This document shows, piece after piece, positions 5,436-15,994 of a stretch of DNA of 64,000 nucleotides. The notes beneath the pieces are model-generated. The model saw only the letters and a list, made by a program, of their open reading frames with translations. It was not told the origin of the DNA and did no database searches. A program made the position numbers and the translations under genes. The first letter of the stretch is position 1. Each line of letters begins with the position of its first letter. Origin of the DNA: Deltaproteobacteria bacterium (GTDB lineage: Bacteria; Myxococcota_A; Polyangia; Fen-1088); the NCBI GenBank assembly GCA_033763315.1, contig JANRKS010000005.1, positions 192,001-256,000 of the forward strand. The letters are read 5' to 3'.

Positions 5436-6857
5436 ATGACGCCGCTGGTTTTGATCGTCGATGATGATGAGGCACTGGCTGACAACCTCGCGGAGATAGT
5501 CGAGACGCTGCCGTGTGCGCCTCGCACGGTCTCGAACGGACATGAGGCTTTGGCCGTGGCTGCGGCGGGTGATGTGGCCGTGGCGTTGGTTGATGTGAGG
5601 TTGCCTGACGGCGGCGGCAGTGAGCTGGCGCGACGCTTGCGCCATGAGGTGCCGCTGGTGCAGGTCATCATGATCACGGGCGATGCGACGGTTGAAAGCG
5701 CCATTGCGGCCGTGGGTGATGGCGCGTTCGCGTTTGTGCTTAAGCCATTCGATGTGCCGCGCTTGCTCGACACCGTGAAACAGGCGTTGGCGCGGGCCAC
5801 TTTGTTGCGAGAGCGCGCGCGTTTGCAGCTTGAATTGGAGCGCAGCGAACGGCGGCACCGTGAGGTTGTGGAGGCGGTGCCTGCGTTTGTGCTGGGGTTG
5901 GACGCGCAGGGGCGGATCGTGCTGTGGAACCGGCGGCTTGAGGAGATCACCGGGTTTTCTCGCGACGTGATGTTGGGGCGCGACGGGCGGCAATTTGTGG
6001 GGGAGGGGCCCACGGCCATCCCCACGTCCGCAGGATCGGAAGTGCTGGTTCGCTGGGAGCGCGCGGCGGCAGAACACGATAACCCTGTGACCTACGCCGT
6101 GGGTATAGACGTAACCCGGGAACAAGAGATGGCGCGGCGAACGTTGCGGGCCGAGCGGCTTGCGGCCGTGGGCACTTTGGCCGCGGGATTGGCGCACGAG
6201 ATTCGCAATCCGTTGAACGCCGCGACCTTGCAGCTGCAGCTGTTGACGCGTCGGTTGGACCGGGGGGACAGCTCGGCCGAAACCGTGCGATCAATTACCC
6301 AGGTTGTTCAAAGTGAGATTGAGCGCCTGGAGCGGTTGGTCAATGACTTCTTGGCTTTTGCGCGGCCGCACCCGCTGCAGGTGGCGTCGATGGACCTTCG
6401 TGAAGTGGTGGGAGCCGTCCTATCGTTCTTAGAACCCGAGGCCGAGCTGCGACACGTAAAGGTGGTGTGCGACACGGGCGAGCTTGTGCCGCCCGTGGAA
6501 GGGGATCGCGAACGGCTGCGCCAGGTGCTGCTTAACCTGGCTCGCAATGCCATAGAGGCCATGCCCGACGGTGGCGTTCTGACGGTGCGTGTGCACGCTT
6601 CCCGGGATGGCGTATCGCTTGAGGTGGAAGACACCGGGGTTGGCATCGAGAACGACTCCGCCATCTTCGATGCGTTCTACACAACCAAGCCCCAAGGCAC
6701 CGGCCTGGGCCTGAGTCTCGTCCACCGCATCATCGGCGACCACGGCGGCACCATCGCCGTAAAATCGCAACCTGGGAGTACCCGCTTCACTATCTGGCTG
6801 CCCCTCGCCGTCGTCTCTCCCCCCTCTCCCCGGCCTCGCCAGCCCGTGCCGCTATGA
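5436..6857 (+). CDS. Hybrid receiver-PAS-histidine kinase
   Basis: N-terminal REC (IVDDD, DVRLPD, KP), PAS-like segment, HisKA AHEIRNPL, HATPase NLARNA/DTGVG/GTGLGL. Confidence 0.92.
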   Translation: MTPLVLIVDDDEALADNLAEIVETLPCAPRTVSNGHEALAVAAAGDVAVALVDVRLPDGGGSELARRLRHEVPLVQVIMITGDATVESAIAAVGDGAFAFVLKPFDVPRLLDTVKQALARATLLRERARLQLELERSERRHREVVEAVPAFVLGLDAQGRIVLWNRRLEEITGFSRDVMLGRDGRQFVGEGPTAIPTSAGSEVLVRWERAAAEHDNPVTYAVGIDVTREQEMARRTLRAERLAAVGTLAAGLAHEIRNPLNAATLQLQLLTRRLDRGDSSAETVRSITQVVQSEIERLERLVNDFLAFARPHPLQVASMDLREVVGAVLSFLEPEAELRHVKVVCDTGELVPPVEGDRERLRQVLLNLARNAIEAMPDGGVLTVRVHASRDGVSLEVEDTGVGIENDSAIFDAFYTTKPQGTGLGLSLVHRIIGDHGGTIAVKSQPGSTRFTIWLPLAVVSPPSPRPRQPVPL

Positions 6858-6899
6858 GGCGTCCCCGTGCCGCTGTGAGGCGTCCCAGGTTGCGTTTTT
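6761..6899. repeat. REPIN-like inverted doublet: 17-bp arms (1 mismatch) around a 105-bp spacer
   Basis: AAAATCGCAACCTGGGA (6761-6777) versus TCCCAGGTTGCGTTTTT (6883-6899), directly upstream of the HUH nuclease. Confidence 0.75.
6843..6884 (+). repeat. 21-bp tandem duplication
   Basis: CCCGTGCCGCTATGAGGCGTC / CCCGTGCCGCTGTGAGGCGTC (1 mismatch), running into CCCAGGTT at 6884. Confidence 0.9.
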
Positions 6900-6945
6900 T
6901 GCGCTTTGGTCGCAACAAATCTCTGCGGCTCGCGATAACGGGAAT

Positions 6946-7857
6946 ATGACAATGCCTCGTCGGATCGTTCGCGGTTTCACCTATCTCATCACGCGTCGAT
7001 GCACTCAAAGAGAGTTTCTGCTTCGGCCGGGAGAGGAGACGAACAACGCCTTCATCTATTGTCTCGCGCTCGCGGCACAGCTATGCGGTATAGACATTCA
7101 CGCTTTCGTTGCGAGCAGCAATCACTACCATTCCGTCATCACTGATCGCGAAGGTCGCTTGCCTGAATTTCTTGAATATTTCCACAAGCTCATGGCGAAA
7201 CACCAGAACGCCTTGCTCGATCGCTCTGAGAATATGTGGAGCTCCGAACGGACGTCCGTTGTGCGATTGGTATCAACGGAGGATGCCTTGGCAAAGCTCG
7301 TTTACACGCTGACCAACCCTGTGAAGGATCAGTTGGTCGAGAAGGCACACCACTGGCCCGGCGCAATCTCCTATCACGCGTGCTTGCATGGCAAAGTACT
7401 TCGCGCGACAAAACCCAAACGCTTTTTTCGCGCTGGCGGTCATCTGAAACAGGAAGTGCAGCTCGTGTGTGTGCCTTTGCCTGGCTACGAGGACGACGTC
7501 GAAGGGTACCGTCGCAAGCTGGCGCAGGAAATCGAGGCTGTGGAGCTGGCTGCTGCGCAACAACGCGCAAGGGATGGCAGCCGTGTGATAGGCCGCAGAA
7601 CGATCCTTACACAACGTCCCACGGATCGGCCTTCGTCGCGGCCGCTGAAGAAAGGCTTCAAGCCACAAATTGCAGCGCAGGACCCAACGCTAAGGGACCA
7701 GGCTCTTCATGAGCTGCGGCAGTTTCGCTGCACCTACGAAGTTGCTCGCCGGCAGTGGCTGGTAGATAAGGCTCATGCACTGCCATTGGGCACTTGGTGG
7801 TTGGCCCGCTTCGCTGGAGCGAAGACGGAACCGGGCCCGCTTGTCAGCGACGGATGA
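6946..7857 (+). CDS. REP-associated tyrosine transposase-like (RAYT/Y1 HUH) nuclease with long C-terminal extension
   Basis: N-terminal TYLITRRC, HUH motif SNHYH, W in ENMW, catalytic YTLTNPVK..LV....WP like the RAYT YxxxNPxK motif. At 303 aa it is about twice the size of IS200 TnpA; no tnpB nearby. Confidence 0.85.
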   Translation: MTMPRRIVRGFTYLITRRCTQREFLLRPGEETNNAFIYCLALAAQLCGIDIHAFVASSNHYHSVITDREGRLPEFLEYFHKLMAKHQNALLDRSENMWSSERTSVVRLVSTEDALAKLVYTLTNPVKDQLVEKAHHWPGAISYHACLHGKVLRATKPKRFFRAGGHLKQEVQLVCVPLPGYEDDVEGYRRKLAQEIEAVELAAAQQRARDGSRVIGRRTILTQRPTDRPSSRPLKKGFKPQIAAQDPTLRDQALHELRQFRCTYEVARRQWLVDKAHALPLGTWWLARFAGAKTEPGPLVSDG

Positions 7858-7869
7858 TCTGGTTGCGGC

Positions 7870-8625
7870 TCAGGCCAGTCCAGTAGGGGCTGAAGCCGCC
7901 GGGAACACACAGTTTCGACCGGCCTGTTTCGCGCCGTAAAGCGCCTTGTCTGCGGCGGCTATGAGCGTCTCCGGCGTTAATTGACCGTTTTGCCATTGTG
8001 CAACGCCGAACGAGGCTGTAACGGCCAACGGGCCCACATCCGAGGTTACTGCGAGTGACGCCATTGCTGCGCGCAGGCGTTCCGCCCAGCGTACGGCGTC
8101 CTCGGCACCCGTGTGCGGCAGCAAGACAAGAAACTCCTCTCCACCAAAGCGCGCCACGAAGTCGCCTTTGCGCTTGTGGCGCTCCAATGCTTGCGCCACA
8201 AATTTCAGGACTTGGTCGCCGACAGGGTGTCCGTGTTGGTCATTGATCGTCTTGAAATGATCGAGGTCAACCATCACAAGTGAAAGCGGCGTCTTGTAGC
8301 GTGCGCTGCGGGCGATCTCCTTACCCAACTCGGCGTCAAGTGCCCTTCGATTCGCAACCTGGGTCAGTGAATCCGTCAGCGTTTGAAGTTTTAGTTGTTC
8401 GGATAGGGTTCGCAGCTCGGCGTTGCGGTCGGCGAGCATGTCTTCTCGCCGTCCAATCATCCAGCCAGCGACGGCCAAGAACAACATTCCTCCCGATGCC
8501 ATCACTGCGAAAAGCAACCTGGGATCGGGTGGTCCCCCGCGGACGAGCGTGTAAGCAAACATGCCCGCAGGCGCTAGCAAACCAACCACGGCTCCGACGA
8601 GCGCGAACTCTTGTGCGTATGTCAA
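7870..8625 (-). CDS. Membrane-anchored diguanylate cyclase (GGDEF)
   Basis: 2 N-terminal TM helices, DLDHFKTINDQHGH, I-site RKGD, active site GGEEF. Confidence 0.93.
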   Translation of the reverse strand: MTYAQEFALVGAVVGLLAPAGMFAYTLVRGGPPDPRLLFAVMASGGMLFLAVAGWMIGRREDMLADRNAELRTLSEQLKLQTLTDSLTQVANRRALDAELGKEIARSARYKTPLSLVMVDLDHFKTINDQHGHPVGDQVLKFVAQALERHKRKGDFVARFGGEEFLVLLPHTGAEDAVRWAERLRAAMASLAVTSDVGPLAVTASFGVAQWQNGQLTPETLIAAADKALYGAKQAGRNCVFPAASAPTGLA

Positions 8626-8642
8626 TGCGGCCTATTTACGAT

Positions 8643-10040
8643 TCAATCCGGTTTGTTGGCAGACACTGCGGGCGCGCCACTTTTCGGCGCCTCTTGGTAC
8701 TCGTGAAGTTTGTATTGCACCTTGCGCACCGAAATGCCCAAGACGTCCGCCGCCTTGCTGGTGGATCCCCCGGTAAGTTCGAGGGTTTTGCGAATGGCGT
8801 AGTTTTCGATCTCCTCCAATGTGGAACCTGGGATTTGAATTCCCCGGCTCTCTTTGGGACGTAAGTGAGGAGGCAGCTCAGACACGCCGACCCGGCGCCC
8901 GTTGCACATGACGACCGCCCTTTCGATCGTATTTTCCAGTTCGCGCACGTTGCCGGGCCATTGGTAGTTGGCGAGAAACTCTAAGGCATCGTCCGTAAAG
9001 CCTTCGATTGTACGATCGCCTACGCGTTCGTTCTCGGCGGCGTATTTACGCAGAAAGTACGAAGCCAGAAGCGGTACGTCCGAAGGGCGAGACCGCAGCG
9101 GTGGCATTTCCATATTGATGACATTGAGGCGGTAATAAAGGTCTTCTCTGAAACGCCCGGCAGCGACCTCGGCTTTCAAGTCCCTGTTGGTCGCCGCAAT
9201 CACCCGAACATCCACCCGCACTGTTTCGTTGCCACCCACTCGCTCAAACTCGTGCTCCTGAAGAAAGCGCAGCAACTTAACCTGGGTTGCAGGCGAGATT
9301 TCCCCAATCTCGTCTAGGAACAAGGTGCCCTTGTGGGCTTGCATGAACCTTCCATCACGTCGGCCGGCGGCTCCGGTGAACGATCCTCGCTCATGTCCGA
9401 ACAGCTCGCTTTCCAAAATTGTCTCGGCCAAAGCCGCACAGTGCAGCTTAACGAACGGGCCCGTCGCCCGGGGGCTGCGCTGGTGGATCGCGGCCGCAAT
9501 CAATTCTTTCCCAGTCCCAGATTCGCCCGTGATCAGGACCGAAGCGCGGGAAGTCGCAACCTGCGAAATCACTTTGAAAATCTCCTGCATGACGGGCGCG
9601 CTGCCGATGATGTTCTCGAACTTATAGCGTTCGGCCAGGCGAGCCTTAAGTTGCCCAGACTCCTTACGCAGGCGTAGATGTTCAAGCTCTCGGTTTAGGA
9701 CCAGCAACAGCTCGTTCATGTTGATTGGTTTGGTGAGGTAGTCCGCGGCGCCATTACGCATAGCTGTCACCGCCGTCTCGACGGCGCCGAAGGCAGTCAT
9801 CACCACAACAACGGCGTCTTCATCAGATTCGCGAACCCGCCGCAGGAGCTCAAGACCGTCCATGCCGGGCATCTTCAAGTCGGTGAGGACGAGGTCCGGC
9901 GTGAAGTCGGACATTTTGCCTAAGGCTTTGAAGCCGTCTGCCGCGGTTTCAACGGCGTAACCCTCCTCCTTAAGGAGCTCGAACAGCGCATTTCGGGCGT
10001 TGGCTTCATCGTCGACAACAAGGATTCTGGCGCGTTGCAT
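8643..10040 (-). CDS. Sigma54-dependent response regulator (NtrC/AtoC family)
   Basis: REC + AAA (GESGTGKE, GSFTGA, FLDEIGE, RFREDLYYRL, WPGNVREL) + Fis HTH. Confidence 0.95.
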   Translation of the reverse strand: MQRARILVVDDEANARNALFELLKEEGYAVETAADGFKALGKMSDFTPDLVLTDLKMPGMDGLELLRRVRESDEDAVVVVMTAFGAVETAVTAMRNGAADYLTKPINMNELLLVLNRELEHLRLRKESGQLKARLAERYKFENIIGSAPVMQEIFKVISQVATSRASVLITGESGTGKELIAAAIHQRSPRATGPFVKLHCAALAETILESELFGHERGSFTGAAGRRDGRFMQAHKGTLFLDEIGEISPATQVKLLRFLQEHEFERVGGNETVRVDVRVIAATNRDLKAEVAAGRFREDLYYRLNVINMEMPPLRSRPSDVPLLASYFLRKYAAENERVGDRTIEGFTDDALEFLANYQWPGNVRELENTIERAVVMCNGRRVGVSELPPHLRPKESRGIQIPGSTLEEIENYAIRKTLELTGGSTSKAADVLGISVRKVQYKLHEYQEAPKSGAPAVSANKPD

Positions 10041-10154
10041 GGGGGCTCTCCGTTCTTCCGCCCGGCGTTCGGGCTCCGAAAATCAACCTGGGTCGTATTC
10101 GCCCAACCGCTCGGCGCACAAATGGCGCGAGCCAATACGTTGGGCGCAAAAAAT

Positions 10155-10823
10155 TCACGTTTTGGCAAACGGCTTTGCGGCCGAGAAGTGGTAGTTCATG
10201 CGGTGATCCAGCGCCGCCAGTATCTTCTCAAGCCGCTGCGTGGGCCTACGGGTCTCGAGCAGACTCTGTTGTTCACGGAGTGATAGCACCGCTGAACAAG
10301 CCATCAGACTGGCGACGCGGGTCTCTATTGAGTCGGCTTTTGCGAGCCCGCTCAGGGCGGTGGTCGCGATCTCACACCCTGGATGGCGCCGCTTCAGTTC
10401 AATCAGGCGAAGCTGCGCCTCTAGAACTAGATTTTCTAGGTCCTCTGGTCGGTCAAGATCATCGGATAGCCCCTCAACACGTGCCAATCGAAACGGATCC
10501 TCGCGCAGGAATTGCCCCACAGTTACGCGACCTTGGGTCCACAATTCGGTTAACCACAGCCCGGTGTTATGCGGTTGAAGATGCAACACTTCCGCGAGGA
10601 CTCCTGTCGAGAACAATGGGGCTGCGGAGGGCTTCCCAGGTTGCTCATCGGAGCAACATATGGCGAGCAAGGGCTTACCTGTTGAGCGCCGCGCCTCCCG
10701 AACGGCACCGAACGATTTGAGGTTCGCCAACAACAACGTGCAACGCATGCCTGGAAAAAGCACGGTGCGCGCCAGCCCAACCACCGGGAGGATCTCGTCA
10801 ATGTTTTGGGTTGAGCTTTGCAT
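10155..10823 (-). CDS. LON peptidase substrate-binding (LON-N) domain protein
   Basis: LPVVGL..TVLFPG...L...TGVLAEV...QQSLLE....QRLE; no ATPase or protease domain. Confidence 0.75.
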   Translation of the reverse strand: MQSSTQNIDEILPVVGLARTVLFPGMRCTLLLANLKSFGAVREARRSTGKPLLAICCSDEQPGKPSAAPLFSTGVLAEVLHLQPHNTGLWLTELWTQGRVTVGQFLREDPFRLARVEGLSDDLDRPEDLENLVLEAQLRLIELKRRHPGCEIATTALSGLAKADSIETRVASLMACSAVLSLREQQSLLETRRPTQRLEKILAALDHRMNYHFSAAKPFAKT

Positions 10824-10863
10824 GTTGATCCCTTAACCGTGGCGTTCCCACTTGCACCACCAA

Positions 10864-10879
10864 AGCAAAAGCCGTGCCC
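10864..10879 (-). promoter_or_regulatory. Putative sigma54 promoter for LON-N gene
   Basis: Minus strand GGGCACGGCTTTTGCT, near-perfect match to TGGCACG-N4-TTGCW, 40 nt upstream of ATG 10823. Confidence 0.7.
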
Positions 10880-12460
10880 CTAAACTCTGACCGCACTTCC
10901 TCCCGCGAGACGGGCGACCTTATCGAGCGCCTCCGAGCTGATCCACTCGTGTCCCAGGTTGCAGGATCTGCTCAACTCATCACCACTCACATGTCCTGGG
11001 TGCTGGTGGGACCGACCCGGGTTGTTAAGTTGAAGCGACCGGTGCGGTTTGAGTTCGCTGACTTTTCGAGCTTGGCGAAGCGGAAGGCGGCATGTGAGGA
11101 GGAGGTTCGGCTCAACAGGCGGTTGGCTCCCTCTGTATACGAAGGAGTGGTGAGCGTCGGCTTCGTGGACGGCCAGGTGGCGCTGGGACCGTCCAGTGAC
11201 GTGATTGATTATGCCGTCGTCATGCGACGACTAGATGAGTCCGATGAGGCGTCGTATCTGCTCCGAACGGGAGGTCTGCAGATTCTGCACCTAGCTGCCT
11301 TGGCCGATTGTCTAGCGCGTTTCTACCGAAGTGCGGAGCGATGCGACGAAAGCGGCAATCCCGAGGTCGTCGGGCGGCTCATCGAGCGCAATTTCGCCGA
11401 GATCGAGCACTTGAAACTCGAAGGGATAACATCCTCCCAGGTTGCAAATCTAAAGGCATTCGCACAGACCCTGGTCATCAGACTACGCGACCGCCTTGGC
11501 CGCCGGCAGGCGGTGGGGGCCATCCGGGACGGTCACGGCGACCTAAGGCTTGAGCATGTGTTCTTCCCAGGTTCGAATGCAGCCCCCCTAGTTATAGACA
11601 CAGTGGAATATGAGCCTGCGTTTCGCAGGGGCGACGTCGCGCTAGACGCCGCGTTTTTCGCCATGGAGCTCCGTTCTTCAGGACGGCGGGACCTGGAAGC
11701 GGCCTTCTGGTCCCATTTTGCCCGCTCGATGTCGGACTACACCTTCTTCCCCCTCATCGACCTTTACGTCCTGTATCGGGCGGCCGTTCGGGCAAAGGTC
11801 GCGGCGCTGATGGCCCAATCTCCTGACACCCCCGGGGACGTGGCTCGTGCCAAACAGGCGGAATGCGAATCCCTGTGGCGGCTGGCCGAGAGTGCGGTGG
11901 CCGCGGGCGAGGAGGGAGGCGCCGTCGTTTGTGTTGGCGGGTTGGTGGGCGCCGGCAAAAGCGTTGTTGCAGAAAAATTGGTTCCCAGGTTGCGCGGCCC
12001 GGTCATCTCGTCCGATTACATGCGCAAGGGCTTGGCGGGTTTAAGCCCCACAGACCGCGCTTGCGACGCGTACTACGACGAGGCATTCAACCGCCGAACT
12101 TTGACAGCGCTACTTGCGGCGAGCCGCGACGTGCTGACGAGCGGGCGGGTCGTGATTGTAGACGCGACTTTCCGCCGCTCGTCGTGGCGCCAGGCCTTTG
12201 TTGCGCTTGCCGACGAGCACAAAGTGCCATTTGTCTTTATTGAGGCACGATGCCGAGAGGAAGTTCTCCGGGAACGCCTTCGTGAACGGCAGCGGACTCT
12301 TTCGGTCTCGGACGCTCGCGAATCGACTCTGTCCCAGGTTGCTGCCGAGTTCGAGCCGCTCACAGATCTAGCGGGGCGGCAGCGTTTCGAGGTCGACACC
12401 GAGCAGCCCGTCGGGCCGGCGCTTGACCGCATCGCCGCGAAAATACACGTCCCAGGTTGA
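10874..12460 (+). CDS. Bifunctional aminoglycoside-phosphotransferase-like / AAA_33 kinase (Rv2004c-like)
   Basis: THMSWV...VKLKRPVRFEFADFS, EVRLNRRLAP, DGHGDLRLEH, P-loop GLVGAGKS, SDAR. Start uncertain. Confidence 0.88.
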   Translation: MPLNSDRTSSRETGDLIERLRADPLVSQVAGSAQLITTHMSWVLVGPTRVVKLKRPVRFEFADFSSLAKRKAACEEEVRLNRRLAPSVYEGVVSVGFVDGQVALGPSSDVIDYAVVMRRLDESDEASYLLRTGGLQILHLAALADCLARFYRSAERCDESGNPEVVGRLIERNFAEIEHLKLEGITSSQVANLKAFAQTLVIRLRDRLGRRQAVGAIRDGHGDLRLEHVFFPGSNAAPLVIDTVEYEPAFRRGDVALDAAFFAMELRSSGRRDLEAAFWSHFARSMSDYTFFPLIDLYVLYRAAVRAKVAALMAQSPDTPGDVARAKQAECESLWRLAESAVAAGEEGGAVVCVGGLVGAGKSVVAEKLVPRLRGPVISSDYMRKGLAGLSPTDRACDAYYDEAFNRRTLTALLAASRDVLTSGRVVIVDATFRRSSWRQAFVALADEHKVPFVFIEARCREEVLRERLRERQRTLSVSDARESTLSQVAAEFEPLTDLAGRQRFEVDTEQPVGPALDRIAAKIHVPG

Positions 12461-12553
12461 TGAAGTGGCCTACGCCACAGGCTTCTGCGCATGTCCCAGG
12501 TTGCGTGAACGAGCTCTTTCCAAACGGCCGCATCTGGCATTTACTCTGGCGCC

Positions 12554-15091
12554 ATGTTCAGGAAGCGCAGTTTTGTCACGTTGTCGGTGGTCATGGCTTT
12601 AGAGCTGGGGGCCCCAGGGGCGGGCGCCCAGGAAGCCGATCTGCGGGGCGCGGCCCCGCCTCCGTCCGGCATTTGGCTCGAGCAACTCGATCTTTCGGGG
12701 ATGACGGCGGGCTTCGGCGAGCCGGTCCCCCGTGCCGCCGTCTCGGGCAACCCCATCAGCATTGGCGGCGTCGCGTTCACCCATGGTGTGGGCACCCACG
12801 CCGACGGCGAGATCACGTTCGAGCTCGATGGAAAGGCGGAGCGCTTCATGGCCGAGGTGGGCGTGGATGACGATCTCAGCTGCCTAGACTCAATGGGCGC
12901 TCCAAAGCTCGCTGCTGTGAAATTCAAGGTCTACGTTGACGGCAAGTTGGCCGCTGACAGCGGCGTGATGAAGCACGGCCAGGCCCCGAAGCGCCTCTCC
13001 GTTGACCTCAAGGGCAGAAAGAAACTGCGCCTCGAGCTCAAAAAAGAACCCGGAGCTCGCTTCAATCACGCAACCTGGGGCGGTGCCGCCATCACCTTGG
13101 GCGAAGGCGCGGCGACCCCTCGAGCCGTGGGCTCGAAAGCCACAGCCACAGCCCGCGCCTCTCTCTCGAGGGACGAAGCGGCGCTTCTTCGCAGCAAGAC
13201 CCCGACCAAGAACGTGTTCTTCTTGCAGTCACTTGACCTCACCAAGGCGCGCTTTGCCTCGCCCAAGAGCATCGCCGGGGGCAAAACGCCGGGGGGAACA
13301 CCTCTGCTGCTTGACGGTGAAACCTACCCGGCCGGCTTCTCGGTCGATGGTGACAGCGAAATTGTTCTCGATCTCGCCGGCGGTGCGAAACGTTTCGTGG
13401 CCCGGGTTGGCATCGACGGCGCCCGATCGTGCGAAAAAGTCATGAACGGGGGTGCCTCGCGTGCTGAGGTTTGGGCCGACGCGAAGAAGATCTTCGATTC
13501 GGGCACGATCCATGGCTACAACAAACCGATCGACATTTCCTTGGATGTCACGGGCGTAAAGACACTGCTCGTGGCCTCTCGCCTCGTCGAAGGCGCGTCC
13601 GTACCAACAACCTGGGCAGGTGCCGCGCTCATCCTCGACCCCGCAAAGAAGGCAACGCCCAAGCTTGTGCAGCTGCCTGAGCCGCCGCGTCCCGCCGTCG
13701 CGCGCTCGCGGCCCAACGAACTTGGGATTCACGGCCCCGGCATCACAGGTGGATCACCCGGCAAGCCGTTTTTGTTCCGCATCCCTGCCACGGGCAAAAA
13801 GCCGCTCAGCTACGCGGCCGCGGGGTTGCCGGCGGGCCTTGAACTCAACACGTCCACAGGCGTGATCGCCGGCAAGCCTGCGAAAGCCGGCTCCCACTTG
13901 GTCACGCTGACCGTTAAAGACTCGTTGGGCGCCGAAACCACCCGACCGTTTAAGATCGAAATCGGCAGCAACAAACTGGCCCTGACTCCACCCATGGGTT
14001 GGAACTCCTGGAACGTGTGGGGCTTGGACGTCAGCGACCAAAACATTCGCCGCGCCGCTGATTCGTTGATCACATCAGGCCTGGCCGATCACGGTTTCGC
14101 CTTCATCAACATCGACGACGCGTGGGAAGGCAAACGCAACGCAAAAGGCGAAATCGAGCCCAACGAAAAGTTTCCGAACATGGTGGCGCTCTCAGAATAC
14201 GTGCATGGCAAAGGCTTGAAGATGGGCATCTATTCATCACCCGGCCCCAAGACGTGCGGCATGTACGAAGGCAGTTATCGACACGAAAAGCAAGACGCGC
14301 AGACCTACGCAAAGTGGGGTGTCGATCTGTTGAAATACGATTGGTGCTCATACGGCGGCGTCGCGAAGGGCAGCAGCCGCGAAGAGCTGATGAAGCCTTA
14401 CATTCTCATGGGCAAAGCCCTGCGCAGCACCTCGCGCGATGTGGTTTACAGCCTGTGCCAGTACGGTATGGGCAACGTTTGGGAGTGGGGCCGCAAAGTG
14501 GGCGGCCACTACTGGCGCACCACGGGCGACATTGTGGACACGTGGAGCAGCGTCGATTCAATCGGCTTTGGGCAAGCGGGCAAAGACAGCTTCGCCGGCC
14601 CCGGCGGCTGGAACGATCCCGATATGTTGGTGCTGGGCAAAGTTGGCTGGAGCAAGAAGCTGCGCGACACGCGCTTAACGCCCGCAGAACAAGTGACGCA
14701 CATGACGTTGTGGAGTTTGCTCGCGTCGCCGCTTCTCATCGGCGCCGATCTCGATCAACTAGACCCATGGACGTTGGATCTGCTGACCAACGATGAAGTG
14801 ATCGCCGTCAATCAAGACGAATTGGGTCGCGCTGCCGCGCGTGTTGTGGATGACGCGGGCTCCGAGGTTTGGACACGCCCGTTGGCCGATGGAAGCTTGG
14901 CTGTGGGTGTTTTCAACCGCGGCCCCGTGGGCACGAACGTGAAAGTGGATCTGGGCAAGCTGGGGCGCGCCGGTAAACAGAACGTGCGTGATCTGTGGCA
15001 GCGCCAAGATCTGGGCGCGCGCGAAGGTGCTTTTGATGTTGACGTGATCTCTCACGGCGCCGTTTTATTCAAAGTTGCGGCTGCAAAATAA
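12554..15091 (+). CDS. Secreted GH27 alpha-galactosidase with two NPCBM domains and a He_PIG Ig domain
   Basis: Signal peptide; NPCBM (GVGTHA..VGVDD) x2; GLPAGL..GVIAG; TPPMGWNSWN, NIDDAW, LKYDWC, WRTTGD, WNDPDML. Confidence 0.92.
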   Translation: MFRKRSFVTLSVVMALELGAPGAGAQEADLRGAAPPPSGIWLEQLDLSGMTAGFGEPVPRAAVSGNPISIGGVAFTHGVGTHADGEITFELDGKAERFMAEVGVDDDLSCLDSMGAPKLAAVKFKVYVDGKLAADSGVMKHGQAPKRLSVDLKGRKKLRLELKKEPGARFNHATWGGAAITLGEGAATPRAVGSKATATARASLSRDEAALLRSKTPTKNVFFLQSLDLTKARFASPKSIAGGKTPGGTPLLLDGETYPAGFSVDGDSEIVLDLAGGAKRFVARVGIDGARSCEKVMNGGASRAEVWADAKKIFDSGTIHGYNKPIDISLDVTGVKTLLVASRLVEGASVPTTWAGAALILDPAKKATPKLVQLPEPPRPAVARSRPNELGIHGPGITGGSPGKPFLFRIPATGKKPLSYAAAGLPAGLELNTSTGVIAGKPAKAGSHLVTLTVKDSLGAETTRPFKIEIGSNKLALTPPMGWNSWNVWGLDVSDQNIRRAADSLITSGLADHGFAFINIDDAWEGKRNAKGEIEPNEKFPNMVALSEYVHGKGLKMGIYSSPGPKTCGMYEGSYRHEKQDAQTYAKWGVDLLKYDWCSYGGVAKGSSREELMKPYILMGKALRSTSRDVVYSLCQYGMGNVWEWGRKVGGHYWRTTGDIVDTWSSVDSIGFGQAGKDSFAGPGGWNDPDMLVLGKVGWSKKLRDTRLTPAEQVTHMTLWSLLASPLLIGADLDQLDPWTLDLLTNDEVIAVNQDELGRAAARVVDDAGSEVWTRPLADGSLAVGVFNRGPVGTNVKVDLGKLGRAGKQNVRDLWQRQDLGAREGAFDVDVISHGAVLFKVAAAK

Positions 15092-15877
15092 ATGTCTTAT
15101 CTGCCGTTTGATTGGTACGAAACGCCGCTTTACTACGACATTGTCTTCGATGAAGACACGCGTAAAGAAGTGGCGTTTCTTGAGGCTTTGCACAAACGCC
15201 ACGTGCGCAAACCCACGCACCGGCTGCTTGAGCCTGCGTGTGGCTCGGGGCGCTTGATGGCCACCTTGGCCAAGCGTGGCTTCACGGTCTATGGCTTTGA
15301 CGCCAGCGCCGGCATGTTGGCCTTTGCGCGCAAGCGCACGCAACGCCTTGGCAAGCGCGTGCACTTGTCACAGCAGAGCATGCAAAGCTTTGCTTACAAA
15401 CACAGCTTCGACATGGCGTTTTGCCTGGTCAGCACGTTTAAGTACCTGCTGACCGAGGCAGACGCTGTAAACCACTTGCGTCGCGTGGCCGAGGTATTGC
15501 GGCCCGGTGGCATCTACGCGCTGGGCTTTCATCTTACGCACTACAACCGCACCAGCGCCGAGCGCGAACGTTGGGTGCAAAGCCGAGGCAAGCTCACCGT
15601 CACGTGCAACATCCAGATCTGGCCGCCCGATCGCCGCACGCGCCTTGAACGCGCGCGCTCGCGTTTGTTGGTCTCCGGCTTAGCGGAGGGTGATCGCAAA
15701 TACGAAACAAACTGGCACTTTCGCACGTACAGCAAGGCGCAGTTCTTCGATTTGCTGGCCAAGGTGCCTGAGCTCGAACACATCGACACGCACGACTTTT
15801 TGTACGATCCCGATTACCACCCGGTGTTTGGGGAAGAGCGCGCGGATGTGATTGCGGTGCTGCGCAAACGCGGCTAG
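15092..15877 (+). CDS. Class I SAM-dependent methyltransferase
   Basis: LLEPACGSGR motif I, GFDAS, LRPGG. Confidence 0.9.
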   Translation: MSYLPFDWYETPLYYDIVFDEDTRKEVAFLEALHKRHVRKPTHRLLEPACGSGRLMATLAKRGFTVYGFDASAGMLAFARKRTQRLGKRVHLSQQSMQSFAYKHSFDMAFCLVSTFKYLLTEADAVNHLRRVAEVLRPGGIYALGFHLTHYNRTSAERERWVQSRGKLTVTCNIQIWPPDRRTRLERARSRLLVSGLAEGDRKYETNWHFRTYSKAQFFDLLAKVPELEHIDTHDFLYDPDYHPVFGEERADVIAVLRKRG

Positions 15878-15994
15878 CGCACGAAGCCACGCGCTGCAGA
15901 ACCGCCCCTGGCCGTTCGCGCAAGCCTTTCATCGCCTCAACACCCGAGCGCAGATGGTGCGGTGAAATCAACCTGGGACAAGCGCTGGTACCCT

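Follow-up and report, generated by a model that had tools for sequence, protein, structure and literature searches.

A RAYT-related Y1 HUH transposase gene and a local halo of short asymmetric sites in the host genes around it

RAYTs (TnpA_REP) and their repetitive extragenic palindromes (REPs) make up REPtrons, in which a gene for a Y1 HUH-fold protein with HUH and Y..NP motifs (E. coli, structure 4er8) is flanked by its own inverted repeats and each paralogue has a repeat type of its own. In the TIRtrons of Di Nocera et al. (2013, PMC3733652), the inverted repeats on either side of a RAYT-like gene are not REPs; in the portion of that paper available to us, some of their terminal inverted repeats (TIRs) form moderately abundant families, dimers or clusters. 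The classification of Quentin et al. (2018, PMC6006769), again in the portion available, takes HUH plus Y..NP as the signature of class 2 and gives 'no REP' for subclasses 2.1 and 2.3. Subclass 2.1 combines NH[YF]H and Y..NP with a C-terminal extension and holds most of the TIRYTs of Di Nocera et al.; on that account, the RAYT-like subclasses 'without REPs' had no known DNA partner until now. Here we describe the gene for a 303-amino-acid (aa) Y1 HUH protein in a 64-kb stretch of a Deltaproteobacteria bacterium genome (the window; C5:192001-256000 of assembly G000, which comprises 7.63 Mb [7,633,441 bases] in 40 contigs) and a short asymmetric word, CCCAGGTT/AACCTGGG, that crowds the DNA around it. 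The clustering is real and highly non-random; good evidence links it to the HUH gene, and the link extends to a large family.

Exact matches to CCCAGGTT/AACCTGGG numbered 19 in the window (10 on the plus strand and 9 on the minus strand), all within 6298-15977. By exact-match count, the remaining ~54 kb of the window and the Y1 gene itself (6946-7857) held none. None of 100 dinucleotide-preserving shuffles of the window reached 19 copies (mean, 1.77; maximum, 7). Throughout G000 the word occurs 283 times, a rate of 0.037/kb that predicts ~0.36 copies per 9.7 kb, and the Poisson tail for 19 copies at this rate is ~2e-26. Only two places in G000 have 10-kb windows with at least 14 copies, namely, the halo in the window and C38:20300-28171 (14 copies). 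Just upstream of the window are five more (C5:182019-189557), where ~0.6 would be expected at the genome-wide rate; no decayed Y1 copy was found beneath this weaker group in C5:176-198 kb (best E, 1.7). Outside the two loci, the 245 copies observed are at background level (~210 when scaled from the shuffles at 1.77 per 64 kb), as are the 108 copies of the 9-mer CCCAGGTTG found elsewhere in the 7.6 Mb, the other 34 of its 142 copies being at the two loci.

By coordinates, 15 of the 19 copies are inside six open reading frames (ORFs) with Pfam domain matches (hybrid histidine kinase, GGDEF, sigma-54 response regulator, Lon-N, kinase-like AAA_33 and alpha-galactosidase; Table 1), and the other four (6884, 10085, 12495 and 15970) are intergenic or unassigned. 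The in-gene copies use all three frames and both orientations (TQV, SQV, IPG, FPG, VPG, PRL and QPG). The motif was on the coding strand in 11 of these 15 sites (p = 0.12) and in 16 of 26 when C38 was included (p = 0.33), neither of which is significant. The first-pass annotation, made from the letters of the window, had reported 19 copies in 9.7 kb against ~0.4 expected, none in the other ~54 kb or in the nuclease gene, and 15 copies in intact ORFs of six unrelated genes; our recount, the genome-wide rate and the Pfam domains bear out these figures. It had also read the use of all frames and both orientations as a constraint on DNA rather than protein, with which the codon alignments described below agree. 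Its further suggestion, that the density be compared across the genome, is answered by the two dense places.

Short words that pile up in genes in any frame are known from DNA uptake sequences and uptake signal sequences (DUS/USS) and from Chi, where the pile-up is genome-wide and tied to uptake or RecBCD. Here, likewise, a DNA-level bias puts a short asymmetric word at synonymous or tolerated positions in both orientations, but the enrichment extends over only ~10-25 kb around one gene, and CCCAGGTT is not over-represented in G000 as a whole in the manner of DUS/USS/Chi words.

The Y1 protein carries an HUH motif (SNHYH, residues 58-62) and a tyrosine motif (YTLTNP, residues 120-125), and N59, H60, H62, Y120, N124 and P125 were invariant in 12 of 12 aligned homologues. 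The NCBIfam profile REP_Tyr_transpos (NF047646) matched residues 7-138 (profile positions 6-144 of 146) with an E value of 9.5e-12, at 45 bits against a cut-off of 80. A Pfam search returned no family for the 303-aa protein even at E <= 10, Y1_Tnp included, and the tyrosine motif is Y..NP, not Y..Q; a sequence search of the PDB gave only a chance match (E, 0.24). The AlphaFold (AF2) model built from the 12 homologues (pLDDT, 83.3; pTM, 0.84) has the RAYT fold: it aligned with E. coli RAYT 4er8_A over 155 of 165 residues (VIA Z, 14.3; root mean square deviation, 2.8 A; Foldseek E, 1.7e-5). The next-best structural matches were IS608-type and then ISDra2 TnpA, the best of these having a Z of 7.3. 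The C-terminal extension of ~70-165 aa belongs to no known family; whole-model searches gave no solved-fold match to the last ~70 residues, a result that has no bearing on fold novelty. Database proteins that match at E <= 1e-5 number at least 996; all lack a Pfam domain, and their names are 'putative transposase', 'RayT' or 'hypothetical'. The 303-aa protein is predicted to be a Y1 HUH single-strand DNA nuclease/transposase of a large RAYT-related clade that so far has only automatic names. Its NHYH and Y..NP motifs would put it in class 2, nearest to subclasses 2.1 and 2.3 as these are given in the available portion of Quentin et al. (2018, PMC6006769).

tblastn revealed three copies of the gene in G000, 38-59% identical, which appear old and divergent. 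The paralogue with 59% identity (C38:23455-24348) lies within the only other CCCAGGTT cluster, and that with 38% identity (C8:189088-189990) follows 10 copies of another word, CACCGGGGTTG (C8:187648-189015). The C5 and C38 halos have no neighbour genes in common. Homologues are present in 22 of 41 related genomes (G000 counted). A one-genome-per-species scan yielded 317 relatives, of which 79 loci were fetched (records labelled Myxococcota, Polyangia, Kofleriaceae and the like); the first-pass annotation had named enrichment around homologous nucleases as a check, and the 10-mer enrichment score exceeded 20 in 30 of 69 related loci (of at least 8 kb), compared with 1 of 150 random 20-kb control windows, all of which came from the single genome G000. 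Some 20 of the 30 highest-scoring words belong to the GGTTG type and have the core CC-NN-GGTTG(AT).

Orientation was scored in 20 related loci with at least six copies of a family-type word, chosen irrespective of orientation (261 sites). The 500 bp upstream of the gene held 63 plus and 5 minus sites, and the 500 bp downstream held 1 plus and 41 minus. None of the 261 sites was inside the gene, where ~14 would be expected. A plus site recurs ~50-61 nt before the start codon, and its counterpart in the window is at -62 (6884, plus strand). In a quick tree, the central dinucleotide types (CA, GA and GG) cluster on the protein tree. A rough coding mask based on GC at third positions (GC3) put the sites of GC-rich relatives mostly outside long coding ORFs; for G000 the coding fractions that it yields are implausible (0.31 and 0.05). 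The Y1 gene is the only gene common to the C5 halo, the C38 halo and the 20 related loci. Gene and motif are associated, the sites form arrays of a common architecture in the family, and their specificity tracks phylogeny. The paralogue clusters and the family orientation agree with the earlier proposal that motif and Y1 HUH gene belong together, and in G000 the sites are, as had been proposed, short, non-palindromic, mostly intragenic and confined to the gene's neighbourhood.

Other repeats were seen at some of these loci. The third paralogue in G000 lies ~1 kb from a contig end that is built of CATGCCCCAACCCC-type repeats and long C runs (C8:187648-191077), and six copies of its word ACCGGGGTTG are at the very end of contig C30 (C30:28212-28312); these arrays probably break the assembly at the C8 and C30 ends. 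The top word at L030 (G027 C2) was rejected as a halo, being an ordinary 9-bp tandem repeat, GCGATGAAC, of ~24 units (L030 12996-13210), 2.5 kb downstream of the Y1 copy. In four Kofleriaceae-labelled loci (L088, L094, L077 and L083), no 9- or 10-mer is commoner than the palindrome CGCGATCGCG (20-27 copies per 20 kb in L088, versus ~7.6 expected from a 4th-order model); it resembles HIP1-type words and is unrelated to the finding.

The motif is longer than 8 nt. T precedes CCCAGGTT at 65% of sites (16% in the background) and G follows it at 87% (44% in the background), after which come a weak C and a T-rich tail, giving a fuller motif of T-CCCAGGTT-G-C plus T-rich tail. The flanks differ between the two halos (T-...-GC at C5 and A-...-GATTT at C38); longer written forms are TCCCAGGTTGC and gTCCCAGGTTGCGTTTT, and the C38 form is ACCCAGGTTGATTTTC. 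The motif is asymmetric, and its only self-complementary part, ACC-NN-GGT, is too short for a hairpin. Site logos showed no consistent hairpin and no palindromic REP hairpin of 20-40 nt with a GTAG or similar tag. The proximal upstream site, which has the longest motif form, makes inverted repeats with 6750-6777 (28 nt, 79%), with 8510-8524 (from 6883-6897; 15 nt, 93%, 14/15) and with 8353-8363 (from 6884-6894; 11/11). The downstream partners sit within the GGDEF gene, and the extended match at 6769 consists mostly of third-position changes relative to G001, a genome of the same genus.

Some relatives have many copies of the Y1 gene (36, 21 and 7 matches, counting copies and fragments). Those in G027 and G024 are 88-96% identical over ~1.2 kb; this near-identical multicopy state was seen in these two genomes and not in G000, where the three copies are 38-59% identical. 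Recent copies in G027 share a block from ~110 bp upstream to ~100 bp downstream of the gene with the arrays outside it, and the arrays of recent copies in relatives consist of locus-specific units around the same core. In G024 the 11-mer TCCCAGGTTGA is moderately dispersed (66 copies; the reversed control has 0): part of them are grouped next to Y1 genes, and others form dispersed inverted pairs ~170-200 bp apart with interiors 73-82% alike. These ~200-bp elements look like gene-less derivatives of the Y1 family that resemble miniature inverted-repeat transposable elements (MITEs) or REPINs. Given the multicopy relatives and the MITE-like derivatives, the family behaves as a mobile REPtron/TIRtron-like system. 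The first-pass annotation had proposed a domesticated nuclease, a view that finds no support in these multicopy relatives, near-identical copies and derivatives or in the homologues in 22 of 41 genomes. Its other proposal, an arrangement different from that of RAYT systems, does not hold for the family, whose norm is intergenic inverted arrays flanking the gene, as in REPtrons and TIRtrons. The intragenic halo is special to G000 and is not a different kind of system.

The likeness to REPtrons has limits. The repeat here is an 11-16-nt asymmetric word without hairpin or GTAG tag, it has not spread through G000 as high-copy dispersed repeats do, and the protein is twice as long and below the NCBIfam cut-off, in a family that is multicopy in some genomes. 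As in TIRtrons, inverted non-REP repeats surround a RAYT-like gene, both in the family and at the window copy, and subclass 2.1 of Quentin et al. is, in the portion available to us, the nearest description of the protein. The TIR consensus published for TIRtrons, GGGGWSAS, which some members of that set have in common, is unlike the motif [T/A]CC-NN-GGTTGAT, and the DnaA_C and HTH C-terminal families reported for subclass 2.1 are not found here (no Pfam match at all). Each end here is an array of many short sites rather than one long TIR, and the available portion of Di Nocera et al. (2013) does not describe copies made by substitution in host genes. With the IS200/IS605 family (IS608 and ISDra2) and REPIN/MITE elements, the system shares the catalytic fold, near-identical copies in some genomes and short gene-less derivatives with the same ends; it differs in having no Pfam Y1_Tnp match (E <= 10), Y..NP instead of Y..Q, no subterminal hairpins seen and ends that are inverted rather than direct. 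The ends of Mu, Tn7 and En/Spm consist of several short oriented transposase-binding sites, inverted between the ends, on which DDE transposases act in double-stranded DNA. The oriented multi-site ends here are similar, and the enzyme is a Y1 HUH protein. The system is REPtron/TIRtron-like, with a short asymmetric word in arrays and with MITE-like derivatives, and the window presents an unusual state of it, with single sites in conserved host genes.

How the sites came to lie in host genes was addressed by comparison with G001 (96% complete), which has no Y1 homologue at E <= 0.001. G001 keeps the order Usp, histidine kinase, sigma-54 response regulator, LonN, AAA_33, methyltransferase and globin-histidine kinase, with which a second genome, G002, agrees for most genes, and it is without the Y1, GGDEF and alpha-galactosidase genes at the syntenic locus. 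The syntenic genes of G001 and G002 have no copy of CCCAGGTT, and the three motif copies in the 40 kb examined in G001 are all outside syntenic genes. The first-pass annotation had asked how the same codons read in nuclease-free orthologues, and in G001, with synteny kept, the motif is absent from those positions. Base composition is flat across the region, and the halo sits in host DNA and not in an island. The sigma-54 regulator is 89% identical at the protein level, and both of its sites differ from G001/G002 only at synonymous third positions (ACC CAG GTT versus ACA CAG GTC; CCA GGT TCC versus CCA GGG TCG). In the kinase, GGDEF and AAA_33 genes, one to three residues are replaced, mostly without change of length; tolerated changes include LTGV -> LTQV in the GGDEF signature region and Arg encoded by rare AGG. 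Codon alignments showed no indel at 8 of 11 window-locus sites, the other three being in indel-rich stretches or at an alignment end; site 10953 is within a 4-5-codon insertion relative to G002. AAA_33 orthologues stop within ~1 codon of the place where the motif spells the end of the gene (12451-12460), with codons other than GTC CCA GGT TGA. The C38 locus (L123) repeats the pattern (CCG CGC TTG -> CCC AGG TTG; AAC CGG CTC GGC -> AAC AAC CTG GGT), with some copies in unalignable linkers; there, a 15-nt form of the motif encodes TQVDF in both a CDP-alcohol phosphatidyltransferase-like ORF and the N-terminal part of a TPR protein (L123 6354-6410 and 11375-11395). On these alignments, the sites evidently arose by substitution, which in conserved genes was synonymous and without indels.

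A closer strain (~95-97% identical), seen in public run X2 and called X2 below, has the Y1 gene at the same place, ~97% identical. With 40 of its 614 differences listed, the two sigma-54 regulator sites are the only readable ones, and both are one mismatch from the motif. At 8826, X2 carries the outgroup state GGG, and the last step to the motif was therefore probably taken in the lineage of G000. At 9282 both outgroups read CAG and X2 reads CAA, which means that a match was probably lost in X2. In a single contig comparison, the Y1 segment (6807-7863) was the least diverged (30 differences in 1036 nt, ~2.9%), compared with 5.3% for the sigma-54 regulator and 8-10.6% for 9598-12769 (range compared, 8660-12769); this low divergence could reflect strong constraint or recent exchange. 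Two segments vary between close genomes. The alpha-galactosidase gene (NPCBM plus Melibiase_2; 12554-15091) lies between the AAA_33 and methyltransferase genes, and since these are adjacent in G001/G002, it is an insertion in the G000 lineage; X2 also has it, at least the part from 12833. In X2, 51 other letters stand in place of 7864-8569, which takes in most of the GGDEF gene; they follow the Y1 stop codon directly, and the joint is not at the motif.

We consider it fairly probable that a REPtron/TIRtron-like Y1 element has these sites as its cognate ends or binding sites and that they accumulate locally through weak, cis-limited selection or conversion bias. The protein would bind or cut the motif sites, and the motif would have the role that REPs have for RAYTs and TIRs for TIRYTs. 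In the family the usual state is an inverted array of sites (core, ~[T/A]CC-NN-GGTTGAT) on either side, directed towards the gene, and such sites also bound the ~200-bp derivatives. The window copy appears old, is single and sits in conserved host synteny, with one canonical upstream site at -62 and no room for a downstream array; its halo sites are scattered singly over ~10-25 kb of neighbouring DNA, host genes included, and there arose by point substitution. A weak advantage or conversion bias would grow with the match to the motif. Such selection could stem, for example, from sites holding the enzyme locally, the alternative being a repair or conversion bias. The bias would be confined to the neighbourhood because the protein would act mainly in cis; an enzyme acting mainly near its own gene would favour nearby sites.

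The size of the bias can be gauged from the 9-mer CCCAGGTTG. The C5 halo has 16 perfect copies (0.14 expected), 7 with one mismatch (3.0 expected) and 37 with two (35.8 expected), and the C38 halo has 13 (0.12), 8 (2.5) and 34 (29.9), respectively. Read as a mutation-selection equilibrium, these counts suggest that a scaled advantage S of only ~3.5-3.9 is needed at the final step and ~0.8-1.0 at the penultimate one. Over enough time, each site would need no more than a very slight benefit or conversion bias.

Several observations weigh against this explanation. A strongly enriched 10-mer was absent from 39 of the 69 related loci, so the halo is common and not universal, and the Y1 homologue on C171 of G002, beside the orthologous TPR gene, has no family-type halo in the parts examined (one stitched piece of unchecked orientation). 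Site orientation in the window is canonical only beside the gene and runs in blocks farther out (runs test, p = 0.03; not significant for C38), and the C38 upstream sites mostly face away from the gene. At several sites, many adjacent bases together differ from the orthologues. Transposases are known for cis preference, which is applied here by analogy only. If the Y1 insertion is younger than the G001/G002 split, a weak bias may be too slow for 19 sites; the bias would then have to be stronger or patch-wise, and the adjacent-base differences would suit patch-wise conversion better.

Adjacent-base differences would also be expected if the enzyme, acting in cis through nick-triggered repair or template switching, turned near-matches within ~10 kb into perfect motif copies, a drive rather than selection. 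The near all-or-nothing spectrum (perfect copies >100-fold enriched, one-mismatch copies 2- to 3-fold and two-mismatch copies not at all) is in keeping with such writing, but a weak-selection equilibrium fits it as well; the multi-base differences without change of length may simply reflect ordinary divergence, given that these divergent genes are only 41-64% identical to their orthologues. In-gene sites match the proximal site over 22/28 nt (6769) and 14/15 nt (8516), and site 8825 is perfect in G000 and in the outgroup state in a ~95% identical strain, although only 2 of the 19 sites can be polarised with that closer strain. We know of no HUH chemistry that swaps bases without moving DNA, and we regard active writing as doubtful, if first among the alternatives. 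If it were true, each paralogue would have a private set of in-gene sites, a local sequence-writing molecular drive.

The first-pass annotation had suggested local nicking that drives rearrangement, amplification, mobilisation or diversification of the flanking signalling genes. On this reading the enzyme would use the sites as alternative ends, cutting at them and mobilising, deleting, duplicating or exchanging the segments between, signalling genes included. Same-orientation blocks in the window (p = 0.03) and in related loci would suit this idea, as would locus-specific repeat units around the same core (by enzyme-mediated duplication between sites) and the avoidance of the motif by the gene (0/261 sites). 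The alpha-galactosidase segment (absent from G001/G002) and the GGDEF segment (51 nt in X2) do vary between close genomes, but neither ends at the motif: the joint 7863/8570 is 47 nt from the nearest site, and there is none at 15091. Contigs of four public runs over the region contained no joints at motif copies, with the proviso that contigs cannot reveal rare events. The two G000 loci have no common neighbour genes, host synteny is otherwise conserved and cutting within intact conserved host genes should be harmful; we think this use of the sites unlikely.

Excision of IS200/IS605-type elements is precise, and this counts against the idea that the element or its MITE-like derivatives, by inserting and excising repeatedly nearby, left the in-gene copies as footprints. 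Such derivatives exist in G024, some copies are in indel-rich stretches, TQVDF is encoded in two unrelated proteins and site 10953 falls in the insertion relative to G002; most alignable sites nevertheless show no change of length, and both sigma-54 regulator sites are purely synonymous, making footprints improbable. That the motif is unrelated to the Y1 gene (being a transcription-factor regulon site, in favour of which the halo includes a gene for an HTH_8-containing sigma-54 enhancer-binding protein; a remnant of motif-rich donor DNA; or an assembly artefact) is largely refuted and very improbable, given that the Y1 gene alone is shared by both halos and the 20 related loci, that site orientation is symmetric about it, that G001 synteny and flat base composition argue against an island and that contigs from public runs of three studies reproduce parts of the region (X1, maybe the source sample, with 13 of 27 contigs at least 99% alike).

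Table 1. Coordinates of the Y1 gene, the motif copies in the window and the short elements in G024
Feature	Position	Strand	Remarks
303-aa Y1 HUH (RAYT-like) gene	6946..7857	+	Predicted from NCBIfam profile, model, fold and motifs
Proximal upstream site, longest motif form TCCCAGGTTGCGTTTTTTGCGCTTTGGT	6883..6910 (match at 6884)	+	Points at gene; 62 nt before start codon
Copy in hybrid histidine kinase gene	6298..6305	+	TQV frame
Copy in hybrid histidine kinase gene	6769..6776	-	QPG; 22/28 extended match to proximal site
Copy in GGDEF gene	8356..8363	-	LTQV (LTGV in G002 orthologue); first downstream, points at Y1 gene
Copy in GGDEF gene	8516..8523	-	PRL with AGG
Copy in sigma-54 regulator gene	8825..8832	-	Synonymous GGG/GGC -> GGT; X2 strain GGG
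Copy in sigma-54 regulator gene	9279..9286	-	ACC CAG GTT (ACA CAG GTC in G001); both TQV
Intergenic copy, CCCAGGTTGATTTTCGG form	10085..10092	-	
Copy in Lon-N domain gene	10635..10642	+	QPG, template strand
Copy in AAA_33 gene	10953..10960	+	SQV; indel-rich stretch
Copy in AAA_33 gene	11436..11443	+	SQV
Copy in AAA_33 gene	11566..11573	+	FPG; orthologues FEG or FPG; no indel
Copy in AAA_33 gene	11984..11991	+	PRL with AGG; no indel
Copy in AAA_33 gene	12333..12340	+	SQV; no indel
Copy overlapping AAA_33 stop codon	12451..12458	+	GTC CCA GGT TGA
Intergenic copy	12495..12502	+	
Copy in alpha-galactosidase gene	13072..13079	-	
Copy in alpha-galactosidase gene	13609..13616	-	
Copy downstream of methyltransferase gene	15970..15977	-	
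~200-bp elements bounded by inverted CTCCCAGGTTGATTTTC sites	G024 C3:58009-58222, C3:579244-579469, C6:919421-919597, C6:956470-956647, C1:1813748-1814015		Loci L134-L139; 73-82% alike inside

Our literature search found no account of the motif, nor of an intragenic halo local to a Y1 gene, and the supplements of the two classification papers may list members of the clade. With weak, cis-limited accumulation of element sites as the favoured reading, a partner word is now identified for a clade of at least 996 proteins; it is short, asymmetric, arranged in inverted arrays and private to each paralogue, and it offers a direct substrate for biochemistry. What is new relative to REPtrons and TIRtrons, as the latter appear in the available portion of their description, is that transposase sites accumulate in conserved host genes via synonymous changes and only near the transposase gene. 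As a clean natural case, the locus lends itself to measuring the weakest cis-limited selection or conversion bias that still shapes coding sequence, and to testing whether HUH enzymes can drive changes in the sequence around them.

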